64,000 nt of DNA from positions 1,027,132-1,091,131 of the forward strand of contig ML992510.1 in NCBI GenBank assembly GCA_010093995.1, read 5' to 3'. The stretch is from Elsinoe ampelina. Taxonomy: Eukaryota. A program made the position numbers and the translations under genes. The notes beneath the pieces were generated by a model. It was not told where the DNA came from, did not search any database, and was given only the letters and a program-made list of their open reading frames with translations. Shown here in pieces: positions 3,743-61,405 of the stretch; position 1 is the first letter of the stretch; the number at the start of each line of letters is the position of its first letter.

Positions 3743-4673
3743 GTTAGTAAGGCTAAATAGTATTACTAGCTACTTAAAGTTACTTATATATATAAAGAAT
3801 ATAGTAAGGTCTTTACTATTAATAGAGTTATAGAGGTAGTAGAAGGCTTAATAAATATTAATCTTACTAAACTATTTAGCTTTATTTATACGCGTAAGTG
3901 TTTCTTTAATAAGGGATAGAAGATATATATCTCGCTTAGTTACCTTATTAAAGCTATAGTAATCGATATAAAGGCAAAGTCTACTACTTAGCTTATAAAC
4001 AAAAAGAATAGGTAAGAAGTAGCTAGCTAAGCTTAGTATAATAAAGCTCTTATTAAGGTACTTATAAATAAACTACTTTATAAGATCTAGCTCTTCTAGT
4101 AATAGGCAGTAAAGGGGCTCGGTATAGAGTAGCTTAGCGCTATTCTTTAACGTAATTTAGTTATTAAAATCTAGCCGATAGAGTAGTAGAGTATTAGATT
4201 ACTTCTTAGAGAAGATATTAGTAAATTCGTATAGTTCCTTAGGTAGGACTACTATAGAGTTTAGCTCTAGTTTAGAGCTTAGCTAGTAATAATCCTTAAT
4301 ATCCTTTACTAAGATAGTAAAAACCTTATTCTTTTAGTATTTAGCTACCGATATAAAGGTAGTAGCGCTAATAAAAGTAATAGTTAGTTCTTTCTATTTA
4401 GCTTTACTTACGTAGGTAGAAATGTAGAAGAACTTATACATTAACTAAGTACTATAGGAGATTAGCTTAAACTTCTCCTAATTTAGCTTAAAGTTCGACC
4501 TAAGGGTAAGGAGTTAATATAGTCTAGTTCGTTCTATCTTAGTAGCTAAGCTAGAACCTAAGTTATAAGTCGAACTAGAACTAAACTAGTTCTAAACTAG
4601 AATAGTAGCTTTACTAAGTTAAATTTTTAGATCCGAGCTAGGCTTAGATCTAGATTCTAGCTCTTTAATTAGC

Positions 4674-4846
4674 TATAGGGGAGACTTAGTATATAGCTCC
4701 GGCTAAGTCTATTACGTAATAAACCCTCTCTAGCTACCTTCTATATAGTCTCTAGCTACTATAAATAAAGATAGCTATTAGTTTATCTATCTATCTAGCT
4801 TATAGATATTAGTAGTTCTATACGTTACTATATATCTACCCTTATA
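4674..4846 (+). repeat. 5' LTR of E
   Basis: Direct repeat of 11956-12128. TA..TA ends are consistent with RIP-mutated TG..CA. Confidence 0.95.
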
Positions 4847-4949
4847 GTTCTAATAGCTCCCTTTAGTTATAGCCTATAGAATTACTACTATAGACAATTA
4901 AATTATATAAGATCGTTCTAATTTAGAACTTGTCTAGATAGATAGTAGT

Positions 4950-7900
4950 ATTATCGAGGACGTCTTATATTCTTAGTCGAGAATATTAGAAGAGCTAGGA
5001 GATAGTAGAGATAGCCGAGAGAGATATACTTCTACTAGTAGTAATAGTAGCTACGTAGCTATTATATTAGAAGTAATAATAGCCTAGCTAGACAAAGTTA
5101 AAAATTTAGTGTAGAACTATAATTAACTTTAATATACTAGTACTACTCTAGCTAGAGGCCGGATAACTACCGAAGCGGTTCCTTTAGTACCTCTAGGGCT
5201 AGTATTAATAGGTCTACCTACTATAGGTTAATCTATAACGCTAATAACTAGGGGGCTATTAACTAAGGCTAAGGAGCTAGAGCTATATAAGGCTAAGAGT
5301 ATCTCCGAGGCTTAGACCTTTAGAAGGAGCCTCTAGATAGTCTTTAACTACGAACTAACGTAGTTTTCTAATCTAGAGAATTTAGACTAATAACATATTA
5401 CTTACGTAGTAATATACCTTTCTCTATCTCTCTAGGAGATATAGAAACGCCTCTATACACTAGAATTAATAAACTAGTGTTATCTCTTATATAAAGGAGA
5501 CTTCTTAAGCTTCGTTAACAATTAAGTAGAAGACCCTATTAACCGAGAAATAAATATAGTTCTATTCTATTATAGCTACTACTAGAAGAATAATAAGAGC
5601 GCCTAGAAGTTCTTTAATTAATTAGTATCTCTAGAAGAGATAATCGAGCTAAAGTATAATAGTAAGTACCTAGCTTAGTACTACCTAGCTAAACTATTAC
5701 TCGATCTACGTAAGTAGATCCTATAGTTCTCTAATATACTAACTACTTATATAGAGCTTATTATATAAGCCTCTACTCTTAAGAACCTTACCTAGAGCGA
5801 AGACTATAACTAATAGAAGCGCTATAGAGCCTCCCTAGAGGCGTCCGGTAGCGATTATAGAAAGCGCTCTAGAGGCGAGAGAGAAGATAAGTAGAAGAGT
5901 AAAAGTAAGAGTAAGAGCTAGTAGAGAGGTACTTATTAGAGAGCTAGCTATTAGGCTAGTAGTAGAAACAATTCCTAAGGGAGTTTCGTAGGTAAGTGTT
6001 TCTACTATTATAAGAAAGAGTACTACGCCTACTCCTGTCCTAAGAAGCTAGATTTAAGCTAGAATAGTAGTAGCAAGAGAGGTAGTAATATTAGAAATAT
6101 AAAGGTAAAAGGTAGTACGCCTATACCTATATAACACATTATAGAACACTAGAGAAGCTTACCCTAGAGCTATAGAGCTCTTATAGTGCTTCTAGTATAG
6201 GCTTACTCGAGCCTAGTTCTTAGCTCTAATAATAAGGTTAAGGTTAAGATACTCTTAGATAATATAGCTAATATTAACGTTATTAACCTAGCGTTTATAC
6301 TCTAGTATAACTTACGAAAGATAGACGTAGAGTACTCTTAGGTAAGAGGCTTCTAGAGAAAGAAGACTTACTATTATAGCGCCTACGAAGTAGACTTACG
6401 CCTTATAGACGACACTAGAGTAATATAAGAGTCGAAAGATATTTTCTATACGTTAGAAACTAGCTCTCCTATTATCCTTAGTAGGCTATAGCGTTATAAC
6501 TAAGATATTATAATAGATAGCTATACTAACTAGTAGAGATATAGCTATAATGTTACTAGTGTTAGAGTAGTATAAGCAAAGGAGTTTATAAACCTCCTAC
6601 TCGCTAGGAACTAAGGATTTACTCTAGTAGTATCCGATATAACACTAGATACGATAGTTTAGAAGGTAGCTAGATCCTCTATAAAGGAACTACCTAGTAG
6701 AGCTATAAACCTACTACTCTACGTAAAAGAGTTTAGCGACGTATTTATTATCGACCCTATATATATATATACTATAGATAGTGTAGTATACTCTATCGAT
6801 CTAACGGAAGAGAAATAACCTCTCTTCTAACCCCTTTATAACCTCTTAGTAAAGAAACTCGTAGTACTCCGTAAGTATCTTAATAATGTACTAGCTAAAG
6901 GATAAATCTATAGGTTAGAGAGTCTAGCTAGCGCGCTAATCCTTTTCGTTCTAAAGAAAGATAGTAGTCTACGCCTATATATCGACTACTATAGCTTAAA
7001 CGCTATTACTATTAAGAATTAATACTCTTTACTCTTAATTAGCGAGACGCTTAATAGGCTAGGTAAAGTAGTAGTGTACTTTAAGCTTAATCTAAAGGAT
7101 ACGTACCACCGTATTAGAATTAAGGCTAGAGACAAGTAGAAAACTACTTTCCGAACTTACTATAGCTACTTTAAGTATATAGTTATACCTTTTAGCTTAA
7201 CTAACGCTCTAGCTACGTTCTAGACCTATATTAACTAAGCACTTACGGGGCTAGTTAACGACTTCTATATAGTGTATTTAGATAATATTCTAATCTATAG
7301 TAACTCTATAAAGAAGTACAAGAAGTACCTAGAGAAAGTACTAGAGAAGTTAAAGTAGTTCGCGTTATACGCGAACCTAAAGAAGTATAACTTCTTTAAA
7401 AAGAAAATTAAGTTCTTAGGCTTTATAGTAACTACCGAGGGAGTTATATTAGACCCCTAGAGAGTTTCTATAATTGTAGATTAGCTAACCTCTAGGAGTT
7501 ACTACGAGGTTTAGTAGTTTCTTAGCTTTGCTAACTTCTATCGAAGGTTTATCTAGAACTATTTAAAGATCGTAGGGCCCTTAATAGTGTTATTTAAGGA
7601 GTTATAGAAAGGGAAGTAATTAGCACTCTAGAAGTAGGCTACCCTAGAATAAAAGGCATTTAAGGCTATCTAGAAGGCCTTTACCGAGGCGCTAGTACTT
7701 AGGTACTATAAGCTATCTAGGCTAATTAAGATCGAGACTAATACGTCTAAGCTAGCGCTTAGAGTAATTATCTCCTAGTTAGTTCTAGTTAGGGATACTA
7801 GTAAATAGCACTCTATTACTTTTTAGTCTTATAAGCTACTCTCTATAGAATAGAACTATAAGACCTATAATTAGGAGCTTCTCTCTATTATAGAGGCATT

Positions 7901-10020
7901 TAAGTAGTAGAGATACTACTATAAGGGTACTCTAGACCTAGTCTAGGTAATTTCTAATTATAATAACCTAAGGTACTTTATAACAACGAAGCATTTAAAT
8001 AGTTACTAGGCCTAGTAGGCTATATATCTATAAGTATTTAACTTTATAATTAAGTACTACGTAGGCTCTAAGAACCTAGCGGATACTCCCTTACGTTATT
8101 TTAACCTAATAGTAGACGAGATAGGCCTTATAAATAGCCTACTAACTTTATAGTTAAAGCTAGAGGCTAGCTAGCTAGCTATAGGCGGTATAGTATAGCG
8201 GATCTATATATCCTTATTAGAACGCTTAAAGGGCGCTACTTTAGAAGAAGGCGTAGACGTAACTATCTATATAGTACACACTAGTTGTTTAGATATAAAT
8301 AAGAACTAGAGGAACTTCGAGGAGTTTTTAGAAAATAAGTCTAAATACGAAAGAGACGCTAAGGACGCTAGAGGTAGTTCTCTAGAAGCTAACTAGCCTA
8401 ACTAGCTACAAAGTAAGTAGTTAAAGCATAGAGAGGTAAGGCTATACTAATTTAGTACGATACTAAGATTAATACCTTATATCGCTACTATAGTAGTAAT
8501 AGAAGAGGAAAATCTATAGAGAGAGAGTTCTAGCAACTAGCTTCTCGAAGCTATCTATAGTCTATAGAAGCAGGATTTAATAGCGTAGTAGTACGCGAAC
8601 CTCTCTAATTAGAGAGCTAATAGAGGCTCCCTAGTATAGTATCGAAAGGGCAAACTTCTATATAAGGACGATGCTATATATATACTAGAAGATATAGTAC
8701 TCTATATAGATTTACTATAGTAGTACTATAATAAGTTTAATAGTAGTTACTTCGCTTATAATAAAATATATAAACTCTTAGCTAGAAAGTACTACTAGCC
8801 TAGTATATATTATAACGTTAATAACTACATTAAGATGTACTATATATACTAAACTATAAAGACTTAGACCTATACCCCTTATAGTAAGCTTATAAATTTA
8901 CTAATGCCTAAGGCGCTATAGAAAGAGTTAACGATAGACTTTATTATAGATATACCTCTAAGTAAGCTAAATAGCGTCGTATACGACGTAGTACTTATAG
9001 TAGTAGATTAACTTACTAAGATAGTAAAGTATATTCCGTACTAGAAGATAATTACGGCCTAGTAGCTTACTAAGCTATTTTTCGATTAAATTATACTAGA
9101 GTATAGTGTTCTAGAAGGAGTAGTATTAGACTATAGAATAGTCTTTACTATAGCCTAGTAGTAAACATTTATCTACGAATTACAATTTGTAAGGCGTTTA
9201 TTAACTACTTTCTACCCTTAAACGGATAGACAAATAGAATAACAAAATAGATCTCTAATCTAGTATCTACGCTATTATAGAGTATAGGACTAATCGGATT
9301 AGTCTTGCTAGTTAAAGATAGTAACTTACGCGGTAAATATCTTCTAGAATAAGACATTATAAATGTCCCTATTTAAGATATATACTAGTAAGGATACTAA
9401 GGGAGATCCGAATAGGGACTAAAAGTATTCCCCTTAGAGAGAGGTACTAGCTATATAAGATTATATAGCTACTCTAGTCTTAATAAGGTAGAGCTTATAG
9501 AAGCGCTAGAAGTAAGCTTAGGAGTAGTAGAAGAACTTCTATAATAAGTAGCATAAGCTAATATTCTTTAATATAGAAGATAGAGTTCTCTTATTTACTA
9601 AGAACCTAAGGCTAAAGGTAGTAAAACATAAGCTAGCGCCGAAGTACTTTAGACTATTTAAGGTGCTAAATTCCGTAGAAGTCTAGGCATACTAGTTATA
9701 GTTACTAGAGAGGTTCTATATCTACGACGTATTCTACGTCTCTTTATTTAAGCTATATAACTCCTATAGGAGTGCTAAGGTAGATCCTAGGCTAGTCGAG
9801 GTAGACGATAGTATAGAATATAAGGTAGAGTAGATCTTAAAGTATAGTTAGCGGAAAGAAGGTACGTTCCTAAAGGTGCTCTAGAAAGGCTATACCCTAG
9901 TAGAAGTAACCTAGGAACTAGAAGAGGCATTAGAGAATACCTTAGAGGTAGTAACTAAGTACTAGGCGAACGTTAGCTAGAAGGCTAATAGAAGAGTTAT
10001 AAAGAGAGTATAGAGATAAA
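4950..10020 (+). pseudogene. gag-pol of E (zinc knuckle ~5995-6040, protease ~6250, RT, RNase H, integrase, chromodomain ~9815-9970)
   Basis: Zinc-knuckle remnant (GKCF...SCP), PILFV-KK near 6935, YLD(N)ILIY at 7275. Domain order PR-RT-RH-IN-CHD. Many TAA/TAG stops. Boundaries approximate. Confidence 0.9.
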
Positions 10021-10052
10021 CATAAGTAGTATAAACTATATATTTTAAAAAT

Positions 10053-11433
10053 CTATCTACTATAACTCTCTAACTTTACGCTTAAGGTACTAACTACCTA
10101 GTCTTACTTAGTACTACTCTACTTAGTAGCGTAGAGAGTATTCTTATATATATCTTAGTAGGTAGCAACAATAGAGTTCTCTACTCTAGACCTTAGCTAT
10201 AGGTTAGCCTTATAAGCTACTAGATCCTCTATAGTCTTATTACTAAAGTTAAGCATCTTATAGGTACTAATAGTAAAGGCGTAAAGATTATCTATAGAGA
10301 GAATAGTAACGAGGAAGTGCCTAACGGCGTAGCGGTAGTTAGCTATAGCCTAATAAGCGTTACTACCTTTAGAGAGCTTAAGAGACTTAGCTAGTAGGTC
10401 GACGTAATACTAATAAGCCTTATTACTACTAAAGGACGTAAGGGAGTAAGTCTCGAGAGTAAAGTAGTTAACTACAGAACTAGCGCGAGAGCTAACTAAA
10501 TTACTAGCGGAAGCTTTATAGGCTTAGGTACTCGTAGGCAAATTACGCCTAATAGTGCTACTAGGAGATATAAAGCTCTTGTTATTACTATTAGCGTCGG
10601 CGTCGGCTATATTAGTATTATAGTTTAAGTAAGAAGAGTAGTAGATAGAGGTAGCTAGCGTAGTAGCCTAGGTGCCCTTACTAGAGAATATAGTAGGTTT
10701 CTTAGCTAGAGTAGCGAGTTTCTTAGCCTTAGGCTTCTTAGAAGTAGTAGGCTTAATAAGCTTCTTAGGCTCTAGAGACTTAGTAGCCTCCTTAGCCTTA
10801 TACTTCTTTCTATAGATGTCTATATAGAAGAGAGTTAGAGCTACTAGAAAGTCCTTACTAAAGTAGTACTATAGGCAAGTTAGTAGTAAAGAATACTCTC
10901 GATAAGGTCGACATCTATAGCGTAGAGAATAGTAGTAATATTCTTAATAGTAAGGTATAAGCTATGTATTTTAGTAACCTTAGCGCGCTCTATATTCTCT
11001 CTCTAGAGAGAGGTAATATTAGTACTAGTATAAGTGTTCTATATACCCTTAGTCTACTTATATTCCTTAATAAGGTTTATAGCCTTAATATACTTATTAG
11101 TATAGTAGTTATACTTCTCGATAGATATAAGGTTAGTAGAGTTCTAGGAGACGTAGTTATAGTACTAGATAGCGCTATAGGCGTTATTAACGTAGTCTAG
11201 TAGAATAGCATTATCGATGTTATAGTAAGCAACCTTCGCATACTTATAGTAAGTATAAGTCTTAGTAACCCCTAGGTTATAGTTATAGAAGGTATCTAGC
11301 GAATGTTAGTAGCGCCTCTAGAGAACTACTAGTAGAGTACTAAAGACTTACTAATTATATCCCCGACGTAGTTACTATAGTAGTAGTAAGGAGTAATACG
11401 TAGTAGTAGTGCCTAAGAAGCTCTAGAAGCTAT
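10053..11433 (-). pseudogene. Antisense spliced accessory gene of E, ~425 codons: Zn2Cys6-like N-terminus and Lys/Ala/Pro-rich segment
   Basis: Intron 11296-11351 has GTAAGT..CTAAC..TAG. Probable intron 10869-10918 has a RIP-altered donor. TAY codons sit at Cx2C-x11-C-x9-Cx2C-x6-C spacing across the first splice. Confidence 0.7.
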
Positions 11434-11955
11434 AGTACTTACTAAGGTATTCGAGAAGCTATATATAGAAAGGACTAACGTATTAGAGTATAAGAGGTGC
11501 CTATATAGGCGTATTTTATTTACTATATAATATAACAAATATAGAAGGTAGATCTATATACGTCGCTATCTTCTAGGAGGTAGTAGTATCGTCTAAGAAT
11601 TAACGTTATAAAGTGTCGATATATAATACTTACTTAGGACCTCTAAGGGAGTTCCGCGTAGTAAACGAACTAATCCTATACGTTTACTAAAGCGCTTATT
11701 ATTTCTTAAAGCAATAAATACTTTAGCTTATAATATAAAAGAATAGCTATTAAAGGAGAGCTACGTTTGCCTTAATATATTAGTGTCGTTAGTAAATAAA
11801 GGTATAATAGATATAGAGAGTAAATAAAGAAGCTAAGTTCTTCTCCTATATAAGAAATACTAACTTACTCTTATAGAAGAGGCTAATAATAGTAATTAGA
11901 GGCCTACGAAGAATATAGTTTAATTAAGAGTAATTAAATATAAAGAAGAGATAAT

Positions 11956-12128
11956 TATAGAGGAGACTTAGTATATAGCTCCGGCTAAGTCTATTACGTA
12001 ATAAACTCTCTCTAGCTACCTTCTATATAGCCTCTAGCTACTACGAATAAAGGTAGCTATTAGTTTATCTATCTATCTAGCTTATAGATATTAGTAGTTC
12101 TATACGTTACTATATACCTACTCTTATA
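11956..12128 (+). repeat. 3' LTR of E
   Basis: Direct repeat of 4674-4846. Confidence 0.95.
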
Positions 12129-14329
12129 TTAGCTATAGTAGCTCCTACTTAATAATAACTAGTAAAAACTCTTCTTTATATATAACTTAGCTATATTTAT
12201 AATTAATAGTAGCCTTATTAGCCTTAAGCTAGCTAAGGCTAAGAATAATATTAAATTAGCTAATATCTATAATATAGAAGGTAGTAAGAGTATTTAGCTT
12301 ACTAGAAATAGTAGTAGTAAGAGAGACACTATAAGTAACTTATTCTATTAGAACACTATTATAAGCCTAAAGCTAAATAGAGCTAGCTAGTGCTACTAGG
12401 TAGCTAAAACTCTTTAGCTTATTAAGAATGTTATAGTTAACTATAGCGCCGATAAGCGCGCTAGTATTAATAAAAGCTTAGAGCGTAATAGTATAAAAGT
12501 AGTTATAGGGATTATAAATAGTAATAGGAGTTATAATAGCGGGGATATAGTAGCTAATAACGCTATTTAGTAACCGTATACCTCCGGATCTATCTCGAAT
12601 TACTCTTATTCTACTAGAGAATAGAACTTGTCCTCTAGCTACTTATTTCTCTAGCTAGATAGGTTAGTAGACTTATAATCTATTTTAGAATTAAACTAAG
12701 GCTAAACTAGATCTAGTTCGTAAGCTAAACTAGTATTAACTTAGTTACTTAATTTAGCTAAGTAATTCTAGAGCTATTATATCTCTTCTATAGTACTAAT
12801 ATATATAGAGTATATAGTAGCGTAAGTAGTCTTCTCTAAAGCGCTAGCTATATACTTAGTAGAGATATAGCTAGGCTTACTATATACGTAATAGGTAAGT
12901 ATTAGAGCTAGACGGAAAGGCTATAGAGCTCCTCTAGTAATAGAGCGAAAGATAGCTAGAGTAGTAGGTATAGAGATAGAATAAGGTATACAAATTAGTA
13001 CTATAGTAGTACGGCTTATAGCTAGGCTAGAGTATAAGGCCTAAGTACACTTAGTAATAAGGTTACTCTACTAGATATTATAGTTAGTAGCGTAGGTCTT
13101 TATAATAAAGATAGAGAGGTTATTAGTGTTAAAATTAATAAGGGTAGTACGTAGCTTACTAGATATCTTCTAGCGTAGCTAATAAAGCTATTTATCTTTA
13201 GCAATCTTAGTATAGAGAGTATACTTATTAAACTTACTAATAAAGGAGTTAAAAGAGATATTATACTAGAAGAGGCTAGCGAACTAAGCGCGCGTAGTAG
13301 CCTTATAGTTTAGATCCTCGAAGCGCTAGGCTAAAAGGCTAAGAGTAGCTTTAACATTAAGAGTGTTATTACTAGCAAAGTCTATAATAAGAGTATTATA
13401 AGAGCCTAGTGTTAGAGCGGCACTTAGTAGCGGCTAGTCCTACTTACGTAACGTACCTACTTATCTTATATAGCACTTATACCTTAGACTTAATAGTAAT
13501 TAGTTCTACTACTAATAGACTATTTAGTTAGATAAGCGTTCTCTATATTATAATATATATAGCTTTAATATAAGGCTTTAATAGTTCTAATTGCTCTACC
13601 TATAGTTATAATCTATTAGACTCTATAGACAACTAGAACTCTATTAGTAAGGCGCCTATACCTCGTATAAATAATGTTATAAAGATAAACTCTATTAAGT
13701 AGACTTCTCTAGAGAAAGAAGAAACTCTCGCGGAGTAGCTACTATACCTATGTACTAAGTATAAGTATTTAGAGCTAGAGCTTAAGGCTTAGAGCCTTAA
13801 GAAAGAAATTAAGTAAATATACTATATACGCGATATAGAATACTACTAAAGGGGCTTTAATTATAACTTATATACTTCTACTAAGCCTATAGTAAGTAAC
13901 GCTAGCACGTAGAGCGTATATAGTAGTAGTAGACTATTTATAAGACTATTCTCTAGACAACCTTAACTAAGAGAACCTTATCTCTATTAGAGTAAAACTC
14001 TAAAAGAGGTAAGATCTATAAGGACTAGTATAGTAAGTATACTATACTAGCTTACTCTAGAGATACTATTCTCTATAGAAGAATAAAACACTTCTTGCCT
14101 ATAGGACTAATAGAGTAGAGATTAGTCTTATAATAATTAAGAGTATACTAGTATAATACTTGTTCTACTTCTATATACTTATCTTTCTAGCTCTAATATT
14201 CTATCTTTGTTATAATTCTAATCTCTCTTATATTCTATTAAATAGAGCTATATAGACAAGATAGCACTCCGTGCTTAGCGCTAGCGAAATAACTAACTAC
14301 TACTAGAGTAGTACTAGTATAGATAACTC

Positions 14330-19390: not shown

Positions 19391-19582
19391 ACACTCTAGA
19401 CATACTTAGGATTAATAAGTTAAAGGTACAAATTTTAAAGTAAAGAGTACTTAGGCGTAGTACTAGGTTAGCTTAGAGTATTATTAGCTTACGTAAGGAG
19501 AACACTAGCGTAGTAAAAACTATAGAATTATACTAAAGTAAAGAGAGTATAGTATAGGTATAGTACTCTAGCTCTCTCTACT

Positions 19583-20453
19583 TTAACTATCTATGTTATC
19601 TACCTTAGTCTTATTCTTATTATTCTCCTTAATACTATTAATACGCCTAGTTAGTGCCCTTATAGCGTTATTAATTACCTACGTAGTAGTAGCTTACTTA
19701 TTCTTAGTAACTACCTATAAGAAAGTTAGTATAGCTTAAGCATTATAGAGGCGTACTTTTAGACTTATATAATTAGCTAAAGCCTTAAGTATAAAGCTAG
19801 TGTTACTAATTATACCTAGGTATAGCGCCTTTACTAGCTACTTAGTATTAACTTTAGAGGCGAAGAGTGTAGTAATAGTACTATTATAGCGTAAAGAAGT
19901 TATACTATTACTATTACTCTTATTAACTACCTTACTCTTGCTCTTAGTATTAGACTTACTCTATATATACTTAGCGCTAGCCTTCTTATATATATAGTTA
20001 GTATAGGCGGTAATCTAGCACTTTAGGAGAATAATATTCTTCTTAGAAGTAGTAGCGTTATTATAGAGTAGTATATACGTAGTAAAGTATTTATCCTAGA
20101 GCTTCTTAGTAGTAACTTAATCTTTAGAGTTAAGCTTAGTAGGCTACTAAGATTAGTATAAAGTAGATATAGTATAGGTATAAAGTATATCTAGTAGTAG
20201 TGTTTATTACTATAACTATAACAATTATAGTAGGTAGCCTTAGCCTTAGTAATCTAGTAGAGAGGATTCTTAATAGGGAGTATACTATCTTCGAGCTAGA
20301 GGTGCTTATTAATAGTAATAGCGTAGCGTAAGTATAGTATAGAGTACTAGTCCTAGTTAGTAAAATTACTCTTATAAGATCTATAAAAGGTTAGTACTAG
20401 CATAGTATAAGTACTATATATAATACTTACTCCTTAGAGACTTTAGAGGCTAT
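19583..20453 (-). pseudogene. Antisense spliced accessory gene of A, ~240 codons, Zn2Cys6-like
   Basis: Intron 20381-20430 has GTAAGT..CTAAC..TAG. Introns ~20144-20190 and 19715-19768 have RIP-altered donors. TAY codons at Cx2C-x21-C-x9-Cx2C-x6-C spacing (20197-20334). Confidence 0.65.
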
Positions 20454-21314
20454 AGTTATTAAAGTACGTAAGTATATAGGAGATAAGCTAGTATAGAGCT
20501 AGAATAATAAAGGAAAAAAAAAATTACTACGGAGGTACTATACTAGGTTAGTAAATAAATAACTAAATAGATAAGCTCGATAGCTAGATCTATAGTAGCG
20601 TAGGCTTAGTATATATACTAAGTCTCCTCTACTAGCCCTTAGACTAGTAAGACCTAGTCTATACTATATAGCACCTAAAATAGGTTACTAGTATAGTGTT
20701 AGACCTATATAAGTATAGAGCTAGTATTAAGTAGAATACTTACGCGAAGGAAGTATTATAAAGGAGAAAAGAAGAAGAGAAGAAGAAGAGAAAGATATAT
20801 ATCTAGCTCCGAGCTAAGACTAATCTAGAGAATAGTAGGTAGTAGTATATAATAATAAGTAGATTCTTATATATAAAAATAATAACGTAAGAGCGCTATA
20901 TTCTATATATAAAGAATTATACTATTATTACTATATCTAATATACGAAGAATAGTATAGGCTACTATAGGTACGCTATATATATAAAAAGTATACTATAC
21001 CTAAGAGGCGCTAGTAAGACACTCTTTCTTAGTTTTCTTCTATACTAGGTTTTCTAGGTTTTATTAAGGCTTATAAGTATAAGAGTATACCTCTTAAAGG
21101 GGAAGAATAATTATAAGAACTAGTATAGTAAGTATACTATACTAGCTTACTCTAGAGATACTATTCTCCGTAGAAGAATAAAACACTTCTTACCTATAGG
21201 ACTAATAGAGTAGAGATTAGTCTTATAATAATTAAGGGTATACTAGTATAACACCTATTCTACTTCTATATACTTGTCTTTCTAGCTCTAATATTCTACC
21301 TTTATTATAAGATT

Positions 21315-24300
21315 CTTCCTAAAGGATCTTAAGGTTATTTTTACTCTAGCCTCTAAGGCTTACTCTACTAACTAGTAGAAGGTACTATATAGAGTTATAT
21401 TTCTTATAGGCGAGCTAGATAAGATATAGTACTACTACTACTACGTAGATAGCTTAGAAGACTATATATAGAAGTAATTCCGCTAGTTTATATAGGATAT
21501 AGTTAATAACTCTATTAATTATAGAGTATATATAACTCTTATATATAAGAGAGCCTAATAATATAAAGGCTAATCTATCTAGGCCTTTACCTTAGAACTT
21601 ACTACCCTTAAGAAGTAACTAGCTCTCTACTCCGAAGAGTAGAGAGTATACTATCTTCTTACTAAGCTATAGCCTACGCTACGTACTACTATTATTAAAT
21701 ACTATACTATTCTAGCTACGCGCTAGAAGTTAGTCTCTTTAGACTTATATATTAAGTCTATAGACTATACTAGTAGTAAGCGTACTATATAAGAAAATAA
21801 AAGTAACTATCTATATAAGTATAGTAGTTATAGTAGCCCCCGAGAAGAATACTACTACTAGTCTAGTAGTAGCTCTTAAGCTTACTATAAGTATAAAGCT
21901 ACTAACTTACCTACTAAATAGTTTAGTAAGTAAAGGAGTTTCTCTAATAAGTAGAAGAAGAATACTAAGTACTATAGCTATAGTAGAACTAGTTATATTA
22001 AGCTAGAGTATAGGTTAAAGCACTTATAGAAGAATAATAAGTCGTAGGCGATATATAAGGTTACTACTATAGATAAGGTTAATAACTCTAAGTTAGTAAA
22101 CTCTAAGAGCTTAGCTAAAGAGTATAACTAAGCTCTTCTTCTCTCCTAATTAATACTTATCTATCGCTGCCTTATTATAGTACTATTATAGTGCCTATAG
22201 AGTACAAAGACTATATATTTCTTATAGACAATTATATAGAAGTTAATCTTATATCTTAGGTATTTACTCTTCGTTATAATCTACTAAGAGTTAAGTATAC
22301 TTAGTATCTAAGTATATCTTTCTTTATAGAGTAAGCTAGATTCTACTACGGCACGTACTAGCTTTATATATGTCTAGTAGACTTCTATAGCGACCTTAAG
22401 GAGACAATTAGCCTCTTCTACGCTATAGACTTAGGACTAGGCCCTCTAGTTATTTTAGGGCGCCTATAGCGAAGAAAGTAATATATAATTATAGATAGCG
22501 CTATAAATAACTAGTTATATAGCTACTTTTTATATATAGTTTACCTACGTAAACTAGAAGACTTTATAAAGAACCTCTAGAACGAGCTAAAGGTATATAC
22601 TATAGTATAGACTCTATCTAAGAACTATAACTACGCCGTAGGTAACTTAGCTCTACTATTAGAGTTCGTAAAGTTCTTTAATATCTTTGTCTATAAGAAT
22701 ATTACTAAATTACTACGCCTACTAGGCGTAGAGTATATAATTAAGCTAGAGCTAGGTAAGAGGCCTCTATTCTAGCCCTTATATAATCTCTTAGTTAAGA
22801 AGCTTAAGGTACTTAAGAACTATCTTAAGACTACTTAATTAAATAAGTAAATTAGGCGCTTTATAAGTAAGATAGGTACTTCTATCCTATTTGTGCCTAA
22901 GAAAGATAGTAGTCTATACTTATATATAGATTATTAGGGCTTAAACAAGGTAACTATTAAGAATTGCTACTTGCTTTTACTTATTAGTAAGATGCTTAAT
23001 TAGCTCGAGTAAGCCTAGTAGTTCTCGAAGTTAGATCTAAAGGATATTTACTATAGAATCTCTATTAAGTATAGCGACGAGTAAAAGACTATATTCCGTA
23101 TATACTATAGCTATTTTAAGTACTTAGTTATACTATTTAGATTAACTAACGCTCTAGCTACCTTCTAAGCGTATATTAATAAGGCGCTAAGTAGGCTAGT
23201 TAATACTATCTATATCGTCTACCTTAACAATATTCTTATCTATAGTAATTTAAGAAAGAACTATATATATTATATTTATAAGATTCTAGTAAGGCTATAG
23301 AAGTTTACTTTATATACTAACCTTAAGAAATATAAATTCTTTACTAAGGAGGTAGAATTCCTTAGCTATATTATTTCTACTATAGGCGTCTTAATAGATC
23401 CTAGTAAAGTAACTATAATTAAGAATTAGCTAAGGCTAAAGAGTTACTATAAGGTCTAGTAGTTTACTAGCTTTATAAACTTCTATTATTACTTCGTGTA
23501 GTACTACTCTAAGATTATTACTCTTCTCTCTAGCCTTCTTAAAGACTTAGTTAAAGGTTATAAGTATAGCTCTTTTATATAGGGCATAAGCAAATAGTAG
23601 ATATTTAAGGATATTAGGGACGCCTTTATACGTACCTCTATTCTCTATTACTATAATTCTACGCTGCCTCTATATATCAAAAGTAATATATTAAAGTTTA
23701 TAGTAGCGGTAATTCTATTCTAGTAATTCGATAGTACTTAGTACCTAATTACCTTCTAGTCGAGGATGTTTATCCTAGCTAAGTATAATTATAAGATATA
23801 TAACTAAGAGCTATTAGTAATTATATATATATTTAAGTAATAGTAATACTACCTTAAAGGTGTCTTATATATAATTTAAGTACTTACTAACTATAATAAT
23901 CTCTAAGGATTTATAAAGCTAAAATAGCTAAATAGCTAATAAGCTTACTAGGCTACTTTCCTTACCGCTTTTAACTTTATAATAGAGTATTAGGTAGGTA
24001 TAAGGAACCTAGCTAATATACCTTCGAGACGCCTTAACTACGTAGTAGAAGAGTAAGAGATATTATATCTCCTTTCTACCCTTTAGAATAAGCTTCGTAT
24101 ATAGAACTAAACTACTAACGTTAAGGAAGCTACTTCGCTTATTAGATATATCTACGCTATATACGAGACTACTCTAGGATAGGCCTAGGCTACCTATACG
24201 CTATATAGTAGTAACTTCTCTTCTAAGAACTTCTAGGGGCTTATAATAATCTAGCGAGTTATAGTTATAGCAACTATAAGAGAGAATCCCTTTAAAGATC

Positions 24301-25780
24301 TATCTACTAACCTAATATTAGTAGTAGAGCTACTATAAGAATAAGACTCTAAGATTATAAAGCTACGTTCGTAAGCGAGAAGTAGTAGAGACAAGAATAG
24401 AGCGCTATAGAATATATAAGATAATCTTCTCTTCTATAAAGAGTTACTAGTTATTCTAAATAATAGTATACTTAAGGCATAAGTACTACGTATATACTAT
24501 AATAGCGAATAGGCTAGTTACTTTAGTAAGAATAAGACGCTTAAACTTCTCTTATAGAAGTACTTCTAGATAACTATAAGAAAAGACATTAATAACTATA
24601 TATAGTTATACTAAGTATACTAGAAATATAAGACGTGCCGCTATTACCTCTATAGTAAGCTATATACGCTACCGATACTAGACTACCTATAGTAAGAAAT
24701 TATAATAGATTTTATTACTAACCTACTACTAAGTAAGCGAGGTAGTAGCATCTATAATATAGTACTAGTAATTATAGACTATTATACTAAGATATTACTA
24801 TATGTCTCTACTACTAAGAAGTATATATCTATAGAGCTAGTAGAGATCCTACGTAACTATATTATTTACTATTATAGTGTTCTAAGAGAAATAGTAAGTA
24901 ATTAAGAATTAGTCTTTACTAGCTAGTTCTAAAGTAAATTCTACTACGAAACACGTATAAAGCGTAGACTTAGTATAGTCTTTTACTTATAGATAGATAG
25001 TTAAACTAAGTAGTAAAACTAGACATTAGAATAGTACCTAAGGTACTACTATATAGAGCTATAAAATAACTAGGCTAAATGTCTATTACAAGTAGAATTT
25101 GTAAGTAATAATAGCATTTATACTACACTATATATAAGCCTCTTCTAAATAATATATAGCTACTATCTAGAGTTAGAGGTAATAGCTATTAAGTCTTAGG
25201 ACAAAACTTTAGAGAGAAGAGTACTAGTAGTAGTAGAGTTAGTATAACACTTATAAGATATATATATAAAGCTAGTAGAGTAATAGAAAGAGGCTTCTAC
25301 CTACTAGGCTAAGTACTATAATAGGAAGTATATACTAAGAGTATATAGTATAAGTAACTTAGTACTACTCTTAGCTAAGAACTTATAGCTACCTATACTA
25401 AAGAAGAAGATAAAACTATAGTTCCTTAGCCTATTCTATATACTTAATATAATTAGATCGTAGGTATATCGCCTAGCTTTACTAAGTTAGTATTATATCT
25501 ATAATATCTTTTATATATTTCTTCTTAAACTATAGATAGGTAGAGCTAGTAAGAAGCTAGAAGAGAGTATATCTCTCGCTAACGAAGTAGATAAGTAGAT
25601 AGTAAAGAAGATCCTAGATAAGAGAACTACGAAGAGTAAGGTATTCTACTTAGTAAAGTAGAAGAACTAGCTTATTAAGTTTAATAGCTAGGAACCTAAA
25701 GAGAATTATATAAATACGAGAGAGCTAATTACTATATATAAGTTATAGCTAAGAGTAGCTAAGAAAGGTCGCTAAAGGCG
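21315..25780 (+). pseudogene. Remainder of gag plus pol of B1
   Basis: ILFVPKKD near 22885, YL(N)(N)ILIY near 23220, integrase region, chromodomain ~25590-25740. Collinear with B2. Confidence 0.9.
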
Positions 25781-25829
25781 TAGATTATAGAGTATATAAG
25801 TAGATAGATTATATAAATATATAAATAGG

Positions 25830-26709
25830 GTAAAGAGTAGACTCCTTATCTAGAGAAATATATTTTAATAAAGCGCTATACTTACGCTACTATTACAAGT
25901 ATTAACCTAAACTCTATACTCTATTATACTCTATATAAGGCCTTATTATAGGTATAGCGCTAGAGATACGTACCTAGCTTATATATACTTACTNNNNNNN
26001 NNNGGCTATAAGCTACTTACTAGCTATAATATAGTTAATTTTAGTAGTAGAACTACTAGAGTTATATACTATCTAAACCTATTAGCTATATTTATAACAT
26101 ATAAGAAGCATAGTTTAACTTACCTCCTTACTAATAGTAATTAAGCTATAAAGGCTATACCTAATCTTCTATAGCTTCTTAACCTTCTTATACTTAAGCG
26201 TAATACTACTAAGCGAGCTATCTACGGGTCCTATATAAGGAGTTAAGACCTCGCTAATAACTTTATTCTTATTAGTGTAGTATACCTTAAGTATAGTCTT
26301 AAACTTCTTAACCTTAGGGACGTTCTTATAGGCTATAGTATATATATACTTCTTAGCTATAGTAATACTAGCCTAGCTAGGGGCCTTAAGCTTAGTAACT
26401 ACGTTAAAGGCGTTAATATATATATTACGTAGGATAGATAGAAGCGGCTCGTATATATACTTACTATAGATATAGTATTTATACTTATAATAGAAGAAGA
26501 TACTAAAGTTACCTCTAGTATAGACACGACCTACTACGAATTAGTTATATCTCTTATAAGAGCTCTATTAGCTTACTCTTAGCAATACTATTAGTGTACC
26601 TAGTATAAGTATTAGTCTTCTCTTTAGGAAGTAAGAGAGTTATAGAGTTAGCGCTAGTAGTAATAGCTCTCTAGACGCTAGCTAACCTTATACTATAAGT
26701 GTTAGCTAT
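25830..26709 (-). pseudogene. Antisense spliced accessory gene of B1, Zn2Cys6-like
   Basis: Introns 26534-26576 and 26073-26123. Same layout as in B2. The 3' end is uncertain and spans a small gap. Confidence 0.65.
25994..26003. other. Assembly gap (10 N; about 60 bp missing relative to B2)
   Basis: N run. B2 has about 61 bp between the same flanks. Confidence 0.95.
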
Positions 26710-28119
26710 AAGAGAGCTAGAGTTAGATAATATAATAGTTATAGGTAGTACACTTATATAGTAAGAGGTTAATAAAATATAGATATATTTTAGGTAGAAA
26801 AGAAAAACATAAGAGAGAATAATAAGATTATATAGACTAACCTCTAGTATACTATATCTTTGTTATAGCTACTAGTATAAGGCGTATATCTTCTATAATA
26901 CTACTAGGAATTCTAAGAAAAGTAATATTATTACTACTAATTAGCTTTAGCGCTATAGCGACTAGATAAACGCCCTTATAGAAACTAGATCTCTAGGATT
27001 ACTACTACTAAGTAGTATATAAGATATATATAAGACTTTTATATAAATACCTTAACTACCTTAAGCCTATATTACCTCTAGAAGGCGCTATACGTTATAT
27101 ACTTCTAGTTAAGAGCTAAGGATAGCTCTCCTAGAAGAGAAGGTAATTATAAGAGCCTAGTATTAAGGTAGTACTTAGTAGTAGCTAGTTCTACTTACGT
27201 AACGTACTTACTTATCTTATATAGTACTTATGCCTTAGACTTAACAGTAATTAGTTCTACTACTAATAGACTATTTAGTTAGATAGGCGTTCTCTATATT
27301 ACGATATATATAGCTTTAATATAAGGCTTTAATAGATATATACTTCGCTAGAGAGATAAGAGTAGAGATAGGTAAACTAAGTAGCCTTAGTAGAGAAGTA
27401 GTTAGCGTTAGTACGTATCTTATTCTTTATCTAATACTTAAAAACCTTAAACTATTCTAGAGTACTACTAGAGAAAATAGTAGAGTCTAGTATCTTTTTA
27501 AACAACGTAGTACTATATATAAAGGGAGCTAGTATAGTATATTCTATCTTAGCTCTTAGCTAGGCTAGTTCGGCCTTAAGTTTACTAATATCTACGAGAT
27601 AGTACGTAGTTTAGATAGTAAGATTATTAGTAGTGCTATTAGTAGTATCTAGCTCTATTAGAATATTATCTAACTAGTTATATAGACTAAGAGTATTAGT
27701 ATATACTAAGTTACGTATAGTAACCTATTTATTATAAGTAGACTCGACAAAGACAAAGGCCTTATATAGAGTAGTTATACTATCTATCTCTTATAGCCTC
27801 TTCTTAAAGTTAGTGTCGCTAAGGTAGATAAGGTTATAATAGGCTAACTAGACTAGTTTATTATTATTATTATATAAGGGCCTAGTATTAGAGCGGCACT
27901 TAGTAGCGGCTAGTTCCGCTTACGTAACGTACCTACTTATCTTATATAGCGCTTATATCTTAAACTTAATAGTAATTAGTTCTACTACTAATAGACTATT
28001 TAGTTAGATAGGCATTCTCTATATTATAATATATATAGCTTTAATATAAGGCTTTAATAGTTCTAATTACTCCCCTATAGTTATAATCTATTAGACTCTA
28101 TAGACAACTAGAACTCTAT

Positions 28120-31100
28120 TAGCGAGGCGCTAGTACCTTATATAATTAATGTTATAGAGATAGACTTTATTAAGTAGACTTCCCTAGAGAAAGAAGAGAC
28201 TCTTACGGAGTAGCTACTATACCTATATACTAAGTATAAGCGTTTAGAGCTAGAGCTTAAGGCTTAGAGCCTCGAGGAAGAGATTAAGTAAATATACTAT
28301 ATATATAATATAGAATACTACTAAGGAGGCTTCGACTATAACTTATATACTTCTACTAAGCCTATAGTAAGTAATACTAGTACATAGAGTATATATAGTA
28401 GTAGTAGACTATTTATAAGACTATTCTCTAGATAACCTCGACTAAGGGAACTCTATCTCTACTAGAGTAAGACTCTAAAAGAGGTAAGATCCTTCCTAAA
28501 GAATCTCGAGGTTATCTTTACTCTAGCCTCTAAGGCTTATTCTACTAACTAGTAGAAGGTGCTCTATAGAGTTATATTTCTTATAGGTAAGCTAGATAAG
28601 ATATAGTATTACTACTACTACGTAGATAGCCTAGAAGGCTATACGTAGGAGCAATTCTACTAGTTTATATAGGATATAGTTAATAACTCTATTAATTATA
28701 GAGTGTATATAACTCTTATATATAAAGAAGCTTAATAATATAAGAGCTAATCTATCTAGGCCTTTACTTCGGAACTTACTACTCTTAAGGAGTAACTAGC
28801 TTTCTACTCTAAAGAGTAGAGAGTACGCTATCTTCTTACTAAGCTATAGCCTACACTACGTACTACTATTATTAAACACTATACTATTCTAGCTATACGC
28901 TAGAAGTTAGTCTCTTTAGACTTATATATCGAGTCTATAGACTATACTAGTAGTAAGTATACTATATAGAAAGATAAAAGTAACTACCTACATAAGTATA
29001 GTAGTTATAGTAGCCCCTAAGGAGAATACTACTACTAGTCCGGTAGTAACTCTTAAGCTTACTATAAGCGCGAAGCTACTAACTTATCTATTAAAGAGTT
29101 TAGTAGTTAGGGGAGTTTCTCTAATAAGTAAAAGAGAGACGCTAAGTACTATAGTTATAGTAAAACTAGTTATATTAAGCCGAAGTATAAGTCGAAGTAC
29201 CTATAGAAGAATAGTAAGTCTTAGGCAGTACGTAAGGTTACTACTATAGATAAGTCTAATAACTCTAAGTTAGAAAACTCTAAGGGCTTAGCTAAAGAGT
29301 ATAACTAAGCTCTTTCTCTCTTCTAATTAACACTTATCTATCGCTACTCTATTATAGTACTATTATAGCGCCTATAGAGTATAAAGACTATATATTTCTT
29401 ATAGACAATTATATAGAAGTTAATCTTATATCTTAGGTATTTACTCTTTGTTATAATCTGCCGAGAGTTAAGTATACTTAGTATCTAAGTATCTTCTCCT
29501 TTATAGAGTAAGCCGAATTCTACTATAGTACGTACTAGCTTCGTATATATCTAGTAGACTTCTATAGTAACCTTAGAGAGACAATTAGCCTCTTCTATAC
29601 TATAGACTTAGGACTAGGCCCTCTAGTTATTTTAGAGTGCCTATAGTAGAGAAGATAGTATATAATTATAGATAGCGCTATAGATAACTAGTTATATAGC
29701 TACTCCTTATATATAGTTTACTTACGTAAACTAGAAGACTTTATAAAGGACCTTAAGAACGAGCTAAGAGTATATACTATAGTATAGACTCTATCTAAGG
29801 ACTACACTTATGCTATAGATAACCTAGCTCTACTATTAGAGTTCGTAAAGTTCTTTAATATCTTTATCTATAAGAATATTATAAATCTACTATACCTACT
29901 AGGCGCCGAGTATATAATTAAGCTAGAGCTAGGTAAAAGGCCTCTATTCTAGCCCTTATATAATCTTTTAGTTAAGAAGCTTAAAGTGCTTAAGAACTAT
30001 CTCGAGACTACTTAATTAAATAGGTAAATTAGGCACTCTATAAGTAAGATAGGTACTTCTATCTTATTCGTACCTAAGAAAGATAGTAGTCTACGCTTAT
30101 ATATAGATTACTAGGGCTTAAACAAGATAATTATTAAGAATTGCTACCTACTTCTACTTATTAGTAAGACACTTAATTAGCTTAGGTAAGCCTAGTAGTT
30201 TTCGAAGTTAGATCTAAAGAATGTCTACTATAGGATCTCTATTAAGCGTAGTAACGAGTAGAAGACTATATTCTATATATACTATAGCTATTTTAAGTAT
30301 TTAGTTATACCTTTTAGATTAACTAACGCCCTAGCTACCTTCTAAGCGTATATTAATAAGGCGCTAGGTAGGCTAGTTAATACTATCTATATCGTCTACC
30401 TCGATAATATTCTTATCTATAGTAATTTAAGGGAGAACTATATATATTATATTTATAAGATTCTAGCGAGGCTATAGAAGTTTACTTTATATATTAACCT
30501 TAAGAAATATAAATTCTTTACTAAGGAGGTAGAATTCCTTAGCTATATTATCTCTACTATAGATGTCTTAATAGATCCTAGTAGAGTAACTATAATTAAG
30601 AATTAGCTAAGGCTAAAGAGTTATTATAAGGTCTAGTAGTTTACTAGCTTTATAAACTTCTATTATTACTTTATATAGTACTACTCTAAGATTATTACTC
30701 TCCTCTCTAGTCTTCTTAAAAGCTTAGTTAAAGGTTATAAGTATAGCTCTTTTATATAAGGTATAAGTAAATAGTAGGCATTTAAGGATATTAGGGACGC
30801 CTTTATACGTACCTCTATCCTTCGTTACTATAATTCTACGCTACCCCTATATATTAAAAGTAATACGTTAAAGTTTATAGTAGTAGTAATCCTATCCTAG
30901 CTATTTAATAGTACTTAGTACCTAATTGCCTTCTAGTTAAGGAAGTTTATCCTAGCTAAGTATAATTATAAGATATATAACTAAGAGCTATTAGTAATTG
31001 TATATATATTTAAGTAATAGCGACACTACCTCGAAGGTACCTTATATATAATTTAAGTACTTACTAACTATAATAATCTCTAAGGATTTATAAAGCTAAA

Positions 31101-32960
31101 ATAGCTAAATAGCTAATAGGCTTACTAGGCTACCTTTCTTGCTGCTTTTAACTTTATAATAGAGTATTAGCTAGGCATAAGGAACCTAGCCGATATACCC
31201 TCGAGGTACCTTAACTACGTAGTAGAAGAGTAAGAAGTATTATATCTCCTTTCTACTCTTTAGAATAAGCTTCGTATATAGGACTAAACTACTAACGTTA
31301 AGGAAGCTACTTCGCTTATTAGATATATCTACGCTATATATAAGGCTACTCTAGAATAGGCCTAGGCTACCTATATACTATATAGTAGTAACTTCTCTTC
31401 TAAGAACTTCTAGAGGCTTATAATAACCTAGTAAGTTATAGTTATAGTAACTATAAGAGAGAATCCCTTTAAAGATCTATCTACTAACCTAATATTAGTA
31501 GTAGAGCTACTATAAGGATAAGACCCCGAGATTATAAAGCTATATTTATAAGTAGAAAGTAGTAGAGATAAGAGTAAAGCGCTATAGAATATATAAGATA
31601 ATCTTCTCTTCTATAAAGAGTTACTAGTTATTGTAAATAATAGCGTACTTAAGGTGTAGGTACTATATATATACTATAATAGTAAATAGGCTAGTTACTT
31701 TAGTAAGAATAAGACGCTTAAGCTCCTATTATAGAAATACTTCTAGCTAACTATAAGAAAAGATATTAATAACTATATATAGTTATACTAAGTTTACTAG
31801 AAGTATAAGGCGCACTACTATTACCTCTATAGCGAGCTATATACGCTATCGATACTAGACTACCTATAGTAAGAAATTATAATAGATTTTATTACTAACC
31901 TACTACTAAGTAAGTAAGGTAGTAGCGTCTATAATATAGTACTAGTAATTATAGACTATTACACTAAGATGTTACTATATATCTCTACTACTAAGAAGTA
32001 TATATCTATAGAGCTAGTAGAGATCCTACGTAACTATATTATTTACTATTATAGTGTCCTAAGAGGAATAGTAAGTAATTAAGGATTAGTCTTTACTAGC
32101 TAGTTCTAGAGTAAATTCTGTTATAAAACACATATAAAGTATAGGCTTAGTATAGCCTTTTACCTATAGATAGATAGTTAAACTAAGTAGTAAAACTAGA
32201 CATTAGAATAGTACCTAAGATACTACTATATAGAGCTATAGAATAACTAGGCTAAATATCTATTACAAGCGGAATTTGTAAGTAATAATAGTATTTATAC
32301 TATACTACATATAAGCCTCTTCTAAATAATATATAGCTACTATCTAGAGTTAGAGGTAATAGCTATTAAGTCTCGAGATAAAACTTTAAAGGGAAGAGTA
32401 CTAGTAGTAGTAGAGTTAGTATAACACTTATAAGATATATATATAAAGCTAGTAGAGCAATAGAAAGAGGCTTCTACCTACTAGGCTAAGTACTATAATA
32501 GGAAGCATACGCTAAGAGTATATAGCGTAGGTAACTTAGTACTACTCTTAGCTAAGAACTTATAGCTACCTATACTAAAGAAGAAGATAGAACTATAATT
32601 CCTTAGCTTATTTTACATACTTAATATAATTAGATCGTAGGTGTATCGCCTAGCTTTACCGAGTTAGTATTACATCTATAATGTCTTTTATATATCTCTT
32701 CTTAAACTATAGATAGGTAAAGCTAGTAAGGAGCTAGAAGAGAGTATATCTCTCGCTAACGAAGTAGATAAGTAGATAGTAGAGAAGATCCTAGGTAAGA
32801 GAACTATAAAGAGTAAGGTATTCTACTTAGTAAAGTAAAAGGACTAGCCTATTAAGTTTAATAGCTAGAAATCTAAAGAGAATTATATAAATATAAGAGA
32901 GCTAATTACTATATATAAGTTATAGCTAAGAGTAGCTAAGAAAGGTTACTAAAGGTGTAG
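28120..32960 (+). pseudogene. gag-pol of B2
   Basis: Zinc knuckle ~29145-29190, protease-like motif ~29400, YLD(N)ILIY at 30397, chromodomain ~32760-32920. Boundaries approximate. Confidence 0.9.
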
Positions 32961-32999
32961 ATTATAAAGTATATAAGTAGATAAATTATATAAATATAT

Positions 33000-61170: not shown

Positions 61171-61405
61171 CTAATAGCTTATCTATAGGAGCTAAGTAGG
61201 AGTATTAAGAATATAGCTCTCTCTAGATAATTAGGCTATAAAGTTATATAACCTTAAGTTATATAATGCTAAGGCCTAGAGATTTATAGCTGTTCTTTCT
61301 TCTAGTAGATAGACTTCTTTTAATTAATTAACTCGTCTATTACCTAACTAGTGTACGATTAGTTCTATATAATATTCTACCCCTAAACGTGCCTTCCGCT
61401 TAATA

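Follow-up and report, generated by a model that had tools for sequence, protein, structure and literature searches.

A candidate antisense gene, inactivated by repeat-induced point mutation, in the tail of a Ty3/gypsy retrotransposon of Elsinoe ampelina

The host element and its tail

In a stretch of 64,000 nucleotides of the Elsinoe ampelina genome (assembly GCA_010093995.1, contig ML992510.1, positions 1,027,132 to 1,091,131 of the forward strand), hereafter the window, a sequence-only reading had placed at 11225-11433, on the minus strand, a gene whose zinc cluster was assembled across a 56-nt intron. This locus lies inside a complete plus-strand Ty3/gypsy long terminal repeat (LTR) retrotransposon of 7,455 bp (4674-12128), in the 1.9-kb tail that extends from the end of pol (~9965) to the 3' LTR, and on the strand opposite to pol. 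The tail very probably contains a former protein-coding sequence, and the locus is, by a narrow preference, explained as the 5' end of an additional open reading frame (ORF) of the element, lying antisense to pol and inactivated by repeat-induced point mutation (RIP). The features of the element are listed below with the evidence for each; RNY denotes codons of the form purine, any base, pyrimidine, and LLR a log-likelihood ratio.

4669-4673, no strand: TTAGC target-site duplication, left copy (identical 5 nt at 12129-12133)
4674-4846, plus strand: 5' LTR, 173 nt (165 of 173 positions identical to 11956-12128)
4863-9965, plus strand: RIP-degraded gag-pol frame, codon start at 0 mod 3 (Pfam matches)
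5997-6038, plus strand: CCHC zinc knuckle of gag, inner Cys and His now Tyr, CFYYYKKEYYAYSC (spacing CX2(Y)X4(Y)X4C from the translation; serves as internal control for Cys/His->Tyr)
10050-10868, minus strand: distal part of the putative antisense ORF, codon start at 2 mod 3, with a Lys/Ala/Pro/Thr-rich stretch (stop density, RNY periodicity, strand LLR)
10871-11295, minus strand: claimed exon 2 and its continuation, codon start at 1 mod 3, with a Tyr-rich 5' end (6 stops in 141 codons, RNY 0.64-0.74)
11296-11351, minus strand: 56-nt intron-like stretch GTAAGT...CTAAC...TAG, with CTAAC 6 nt before the TAG (signals at chance frequency; register shift from 0 to 1)
11352-11433, minus strand: claimed exon 1, codon start at 0 mod 3, 27 codons plus one base, one TAG (weak RNY, LLR +2.4 bits)
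11434-11939, no strand: spacer without sustained codon periodicity, with a weak register-0 signal to ~11490 (R1 0.45, R3 0.45, RNY ~0.5)
11940-11955, plus strand: polypurine-tract-like run ATAAAGAAGAGATAAT abutting the 3' LTR (by eye only)
11956-12128, plus strand: 3' LTR, 173 nt (comparison of the LTR pair)
12129-12133, no strand: TTAGC target-site duplication, right copy (same 5 nt as the left copy)

The 8 differences between the two LTRs are all transitions, the pair was also detected at 92.6%, and the LTRs end in TA...TA, where TG...CA is expected before RIP. The corresponding empty site, with a single TTAGC, is found at 43717-43734 in a paralogue of the host repeat that the element interrupts. 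In the gag-pol frame, Pfam returned RVT_1 (E 1.7e-18, nt 6951-7430), RT_RNaseH_2 and RT_RNaseH (E 3.9e-13 and 4.3e-11, nt 7650-8030) and SH3_Tf2-1 (E 6.2e-08, nt 9579-9758), together with a weak match to Integrase_H2C2 (E 0.0041, under its cut-off, nt 8712-8834) located between the RNase H and SH3 domains, and the order reverse transcriptase (RT), RNase H and integrase is thus that of Ty3/gypsy elements. A stretch resembling the chromodomain that chromoviruses have at the end of integrase was noticed by eye at ~9840-9960, where Pfam gave none at E up to 1, and the remaining five frames of the internal part matched no Pfam family.

The window is heavily RIP-mutated. It is a nest of diverged repeats, AT-rich throughout (GC 0.25-0.36 outside runs of N), with a TpA/ApT index of 2.04 and a (CpA+TpG)/(ApC+GpT) index of 0.13, CpA and TpG being reduced to 0.15 and 0.12 of expectation, respectively. 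Over its six frames Tyr accounts for 9.4% of residues and stops for 11.2%, against only 0.6% for Cys and 0.4% for His, which indicates that ancestral Cys (TGY) and His (CAY) codons were largely turned into Tyr codons (TAY).

A probable former coding sequence in the tail

Since RIP converts C to T and G to A, it leaves the pattern of purines and pyrimidines intact, and RNY codon periodicity is consequently RIP-invariant. In the tail the RNY score is 0.62-0.79 in one register from ~10050 to ~10860 and 0.64-0.74 in another from ~10830 to ~11300, followed by a weak score of 0.55-0.63 in a third register over ~11280-11490; no RNY periodicity was found before ~10020 or past ~11500. The strong periodicity ends at the acceptor site of the claimed intron, and its weak continuation is then in the frame of the claimed exon 1. 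The stop density points in the same direction, the minus frame at 10119-10958 having 6 stops per 250 codons. This count ranks lowest among 11,969 six-frame windows of that length (mean 28.7, 1st percentile 13), in which the RT region of the element has 8. The tail from ~10050 to 11300 is thus very probably a former protein-coding sequence of ~1.25 kb.

In this copy the tail gene is dead, with 17 in-frame TAA/TAG stops spread over the three minus-strand parts and a register change near 10850. The shift is by one base, at ~10850-10880. A second intron was sought there by eye, and the only two candidates, the 28-nt stretch GTATTC..TACTAAC..TAG and a GTAAGG that lacks an in-phase YAG, were rejected. 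With regard to the stops, the sequence-only reading had proposed that those which RIP can explain should be told apart from those which it cannot. This turns out to be uninformative, as every stop in every frame compared (the pol frame and the minus and plus frames of the tail) is TAA or TAG, TGA being absent.

RNY periodicity in two registers was also observed at 19540-20470, with minus-strand GTAAGT..CTAAC..TAG patterns at 20381-20430 and 20688-20743, and this region could be a further tail gene, belonging to a neighbouring element.

Strand of the putative tail gene

Stop counts and RNY periodicity are blind to strand. An empirical codon-usage LLR, contrasting sense with in-register antisense, was trained on 10 other RIP-mutated pol segments found by a local tblastn of pol. 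All 33 held-out windows from the pol of the present element scored positive with it, as did 10 of 10 segments under leave-one-out testing. For 10871-11293 (part A) it gave +16.4 bits in favour of the minus strand, and for 10101-10958 (part B) +24.9 bits, or +30.8 when all pol segments were used in training, the non-periodic spacer displaying only +4.0 bits. A generic model based on average amino-acid frequencies and an explicit CpA/TpG->TpA mutation likewise gave +15.8 / +25.9 bits for the minus strand in part B. A six-frame codon model was right in 31 of 38 pol windows, with small margins in the tail, and was given little weight.

The composition of the two readings also differs. In the minus reading of the tail R1 is lower than Y3, a relation also displayed by those known sense frames that are strongly periodic, while in the plus reading R1 reaches 0.69-0.74, above every known sense segment in the window (0.52-0.60). 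The Lys/Ala/Pro/Thr-rich stretch is composed, on the minus strand, of AAG, GCT, CCT and ACT codons; on the plus strand it reads as Leu/Ser/Arg from CTT and AGN only. Based on these models, which favour it without being decisive, the sense strand of the tail gene is likely to be the minus strand, convergent with pol.

Another gypsy family is present in the window as tandem copies at 21308-27337 and 28485-34565, 90% identical and spaced by 7177. Its tails also contain a periodic, stop-poor stretch (25900-26574 and 33100-33774), in which the plus frame has 6 stops versus ~17 for the minus frame.

Other copies of the tail and homology searches

Other copies of the element were sought in two DNA runs of the same organism, X1 and X2, which derive from one sample and one study, X1 being possibly the sample of the window itself. 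At least 80% likeness to 9500-12200 was displayed by 340 contigs in X1 and 418 in X2, covering all 30 bins, the contig depth in these runs being no copy number. The listed variant sites (40 of 474) are supported by 1-9 contigs each, alike in the pol end and in the tail, and the differences in X1 are nearly all transitions (A>G 154, T>C 132, G>A 84, C>T 69, others 8). Since diverged copies cover the tail as they cover the end of pol, the founder already had the tail, which then persisted as the family amplified. Two further runs, X3 and X6, presumed to be RNA, gave no sequence over 9500-12200, an outcome that speaks neither for nor against transcription. Among the 40 listed sites, 11279 and 11290 turn a Phe of the sequence-only reading into Leu in most copies, 11343 falls inside the intron-like stretch and outside its signals, 11427 changes Ser to Pro, and none falls on a Tyr codon or on a splice signal. 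At 11215/11216 and 11655/11656 most other copies carry TA where the copy studied has CG. This indicates that RIP in this organism also acts on CpG, which in the window stands at 0.77 of expectation versus 1.49 for GpC.

Within the window, no further copy of the tail was found by DNA, protein or six-frame comparison, nor did it resemble the tails of the second gypsy family. The three minus-strand pieces matched no Pfam family at E up to 10, a result to be read with the removal of all Cys by RIP, through which a true Zn2Cys6 member could escape the profile. A word-indexed protein search returned 429 candidates for part B, none at E <= 0.01, and 308 candidates for part A, with no match, and a second such search with part A gave no candidate. 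Comparison of part B with 1,835,955,588 representatives by phmmer gave nothing at E <= 0.001. Searches of PDB sequences yielded either no match or three weak ones only (E 0.14-0.98, to beta-glucosidase and a kelch-like protein), which were taken as noise. The plus frames of the tail gave one sub-threshold Pfam match only (E 0.057, 13.9 bits versus a cut-off of 25). Many residues of the translation have been changed by RIP, and for this reason the empty searches are no proof that the tail protein is an orphan.

The intron-like stretch

The letters on which the claimed splice was based are as reported. The minus strand reads ATA GCT from 11433, in a frame which gives ...ITPYYYYSNYVGDII and leaves one spare base at 11352; a second genomic frame starts at 11295 and gives (N)TFYNYNLGVTKTYTYYKYAKVAY..., so that the two are joined in phase 1 across 56 nt, a length of 2 mod 3. 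The claimed exon 1 also includes one in-frame TAG that had gone unmentioned. Introns of filamentous fungi have a GT donor, a branch site and an AG acceptor, and are typically about 50-70 nt long. The stretch at 11296-11351 contains stops in all three frames and coincides with the shift of the codon register from 0 to 1, the register signal upstream being weak (0.55-0.63). If no intron is assumed, the Tyr-rich part has no start candidate in frame (ATG, or the ATA that RIP leaves) until about codon 60.

A strict intron-like pattern was also found on the plus strand of the same tail, at 10446-10507, where the frames on either side are poorly open, with 14 stops in 167 codons, indicating that such patterns arise easily in this window.

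The Tyr-rich N-terminus and the proposed zinc cluster

Of the 62 N-terminal residues predicted for the tail protein, 18 are Tyr, whereas the remainder of the frame has 35 Tyr among 349 residues (binomial P 2.5e-5). In gag-pol the Tyr-richest window of 62 residues, with 16 Tyr, is the HHCC zinc domain of the integrase. As the N-terminal count exceeds that of a RIP-mutated integrase zinc domain, it is plausible that this region was formerly Cys/His-rich, and it was possibly zinc-binding, the type of domain not being readable from Tyr positions alone.

Zn2Cys6 clusters of the Gal4 type follow the spacing CX2CX6CX5-12CX2CX6-8C. Even with every Tyr read as Cys, this spacing is absent from the virtual spliced product, from the frame 11293-10871 and from the frame 11433-11296, and the zinc cluster proposed for the locus is not supported; in its relaxed form the same pattern has 21 matches elsewhere in the six frames of the window. 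What is present, at 11257-11225, is a first half-motif of the form Y x2 Y x6 Y, with Lys residues on its flanks, in a window where [C/Y]x2[C/Y]x6[C/Y] occurs 184 times over the six frames. The arrangement originally put forward, a CX2C ahead of a CX2CX6C half, is not in the order of the family. Several of the Arg residues in its proposed pre-RIP sequence require a two-step CGY->TAY change, possible given the CG->TA differences at 11215/6 and 11655/6, and these residues were chosen to fit. A C4-like spacing extends across the claimed splice junction, and 54 such patterns exist in the window.

Other features of the window

Runs of N are located at ~1239-1981, from 25994 onward and within 58001-59000, amounting to 1.9% of the window, and represent assembly gaps inside the repeat nest. 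An inverted repeat (51013-53875 and 58376-61238) has arms of 2.86 kb, 90% complementary and 4.5 kb apart. The minus frame at 41019-41798 is the third stop-poorest of the window (8 stops per 250 codons). A pol segment on the minus strand, 43169-42522, lies beside it, and both probably belong to the pol of one element.

Discussion

The sequence-only reading took two exons in different genomic frames, joined only by a splice, as a sign of a real gene. The coding part of this idea holds, a former gene being very probable, but the gene would be an additional ORF of a retrotransposon and not a host gene. We consider that the locus is, with slightly better than even probability, the 5' end of a RIP-inactivated additional ORF located antisense in the tail of the Ty3/gypsy element. 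Antisense additional ORFs (aORFs) between pol and the 3' LTR are reported, in the portions of the sources available, for Boty of Botrytis cinerea and Sclerotinia sclerotiorum, whose gene is named brtn (PMC7264820, PMC8365987, PMC4227169), and BRTN-like transcripts are likewise described for Monilinia (PMC5987419). As far as the accessible text of these sources goes, the present element resembles Boty in being a fungal Ty3/gypsy element with gag (including a zinc knuckle), RT and integrase, in having an extra gene from pol to the 3' LTR on the opposite strand (here inferred to be the minus strand), compared by position and orientation and not by sequence, and in that the tail containing the extra gene recurs in further copies of the family; unlike Boty, it has short LTRs (173 nt) and is RIP-dead. 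In plants, the available part of PMC7264820 describes aORF-3R, antisense between pol and the 3' LTR, in maize Grande, rice RIRE2, Silene Retand and Phaseolus PvRetro13. The similarity to these lies in position and orientation, the only terms of the comparison, and in conservation within a family with a presumed role for the element, whereas kingdom and lineages are different. No fungal antisense aORF besides brtn turned up in the literature searched, and the portions of Muszewska et al. 2011 at hand contain no passage on antisense or additional ORFs. The tail gene would be a new, unrelated-looking member of the known antisense aORF arrangement, the comparison with brtn being one of position and orientation only.

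Several observations weigh against this explanation. The register shift at ~10850 is accompanied neither by a canonical intron nor by an indel in the majority of the other copies, and a homologue of the tail translation was found in none of the searches, BRTN being likewise absent from their results. With respect to the splice, GTAAGT N20-50 CTAAC N3-20 TAG occurs 8 times in the window, versus 7.35 +/- 2.97 in 100 dinucleotide-preserving shuffles, 43 of which reach 8 or more, and GTAAGT alone is found 107 times on the two strands. In addition, when the window's 12 patterns of this kind are spliced virtually, 5 of the products have at most 9 stops in 167 codons, the 7 of the present one being tied with one other. 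The claimed exon 1, moreover, is short at 27 codons and weakly periodic, and its LLR reaches +2.4 bits only. With respect to the strand, the in-register plus frames hardly differ in openness from the minus frames (4 versus 6 stops in 141 codons at 10871-11293, and 17 versus 10 in 286 codons at 10101-10958), so that stop counts do not decide between them. The generic model is undecided for part A, with -2.3 bits under uniform codon weights or +13.7 under other weights, and was positive in 9 of 11 known pol segments only, two being near zero. Both LLR models also give the minus strand for the tail of the other gypsy family, where stops favour plus (6 versus ~17), and the models may thus be biased outside pol. 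Division of the TA frequency at codon positions 1-2 by that at positions 2-3 gives 3.0 and 1.43 in the minus reading, whereas pol has 0.78-1.13; the plus reading, with 0.33 and 0.70, is no better for part A. Finally, the purine excess on the plus strand of the tail equals that of the sense strand of pol.

Some of these strand observations would also be expected if the tail were a sense-strand third ORF past pol, env-like or of another kind, with the minus-strand gene, the intron and the Tyr runs as by-products of complementary frames, an explanation which we regard as unlikely, though it deserves consideration. Besides the open in-register plus frames and the purine excess that is kept from pol into the tail, part B shares the frame of pol, RNY periodicity is strand-blind, and the tail of the other gypsy family has clearly fewer plus than minus stops. 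Nevertheless, the strand models favour minus by +16 to +31 bits (empirical) and by up to +26 (generic), the R1 of 0.69-0.74 that a plus reading demands exceeds all known sense segments of the window, the plus translation consists mostly of Ile, Val, Leu and Ser, with Ser and Arg nearly all from AGN codons, and the best Pfam result in the plus frames stays below threshold (E 0.057, 13.9 bits versus 25). A foreign origin of the tail, as a fragment of a host gene or a piece of another transposon that was captured by or inserted in the founder and is carried as passive cargo, appears improbable. It would be in agreement with the lack of matches elsewhere in the window in any frame and with the dissimilarity from the second gypsy family's tails, and an intron, which would speak against a processed mRNA, would fit a genomic fragment; however, diverged copies extend over the tail just as over the end of pol, placing it in the founder, it is enclosed by the element's own target-site duplication, polypurine tract and LTRs, and antisense aORFs at exactly this place are known and conserved in other families, according to the portion of PMC7264820 available. 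A genuine Gal4-type Zn2Cys6 transcription-factor gene, with its cluster split by the 56-nt intron, is highly improbable. Like such factors, the predicted protein of this fungal gene has, close to its N-terminus, one CX2CX6C-like half in Tyr space, with basic residues; Tyr is strongly enriched in that terminal region, and a change from Cys to Tyr (TGY->TAY) is the expected outcome of RIP, as in the gag knuckle. Unlike them, it lacks the second half at the required spacing, although full spacings with Tyr taken as Cys arise 21 times elsewhere in the window and half-motifs 184 times, the proposed pairs of Cys are in an order foreign to the family, no Pfam profile is matched at E up to 10, and the locus is inside a retrotransposon. 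The least credible of all is a tail without any coding past, in which chance in a RIP-shaped composition produced open frames, intron and Tyr runs alike: the chance frequency of the intron pattern and of the Cys-like spacings, and the absence of a homologue from every search, would be accounted for, but not RNY scores of 0.62-0.79 over 1.25 kb with a sharp stop at both sides, the lowest stop density of 11,969 windows, and an excess of TAY over TAR codons (24:6 and 24:8).

As to the intron proposed within this antisense ORF, the signals, length and phase of a canonical intron are all present, but a pattern at chance frequency is no evidence in itself, and the sole support beyond chance is its position at the change of codon register. 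Whether the 56-nt stretch is a real intron is accordingly close to an even question, with the balance slightly against it. We hypothesize that the antisense gene would be transcribed from the spacer beside the 3' LTR, in which case the spacer at 11434-11939 may hold its promoter or 5' UTR. The product, of ~400-430 residues, would have an N-terminus rich in Cys and His (at present in Tyr), followed by a basic stretch rich in Lys, Ala, Pro and Thr and by a C-terminal part. The intron, if real, would be antisense in the genomic RNA of the element and thus not spliceable from the sense RNA, which would explain its persistence through retrotransposition and its inheritance by every new copy. By analogy with known aORFs, the function of the tail gene would have served the life cycle or the regulation of the element, and not the host. 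In its fullest form, this proposal would mean that the gypsy family had an antisense gene of its own, interrupted by an intron and encoding a regulator that bound zinc and possibly DNA and had no sequence relation to brtn, with the intron kept because it is antisense in the genomic RNA, a combination that we consider distinctly unlikely as a whole.

The findings have implications for the reading of RIP-mutated DNA in general, where introns of the form GTAAGT..CTAAC..TAG, motifs with Tyr in place of Cys and stops that RIP may explain are without weight, while the codon periodicity of purines and pyrimidines survives RIP and carries weight. Antisense additional genes of LTR retrotransposons are poorly understood, and the function of brtn is unknown. 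If the antisense explanation is correct, a second, unrelated fungal family with an antisense gene in this position would suggest a recurrent arrangement that is useful to the element, and the case for recurrence would be stronger still with a zinc-binding product and a retained intron.

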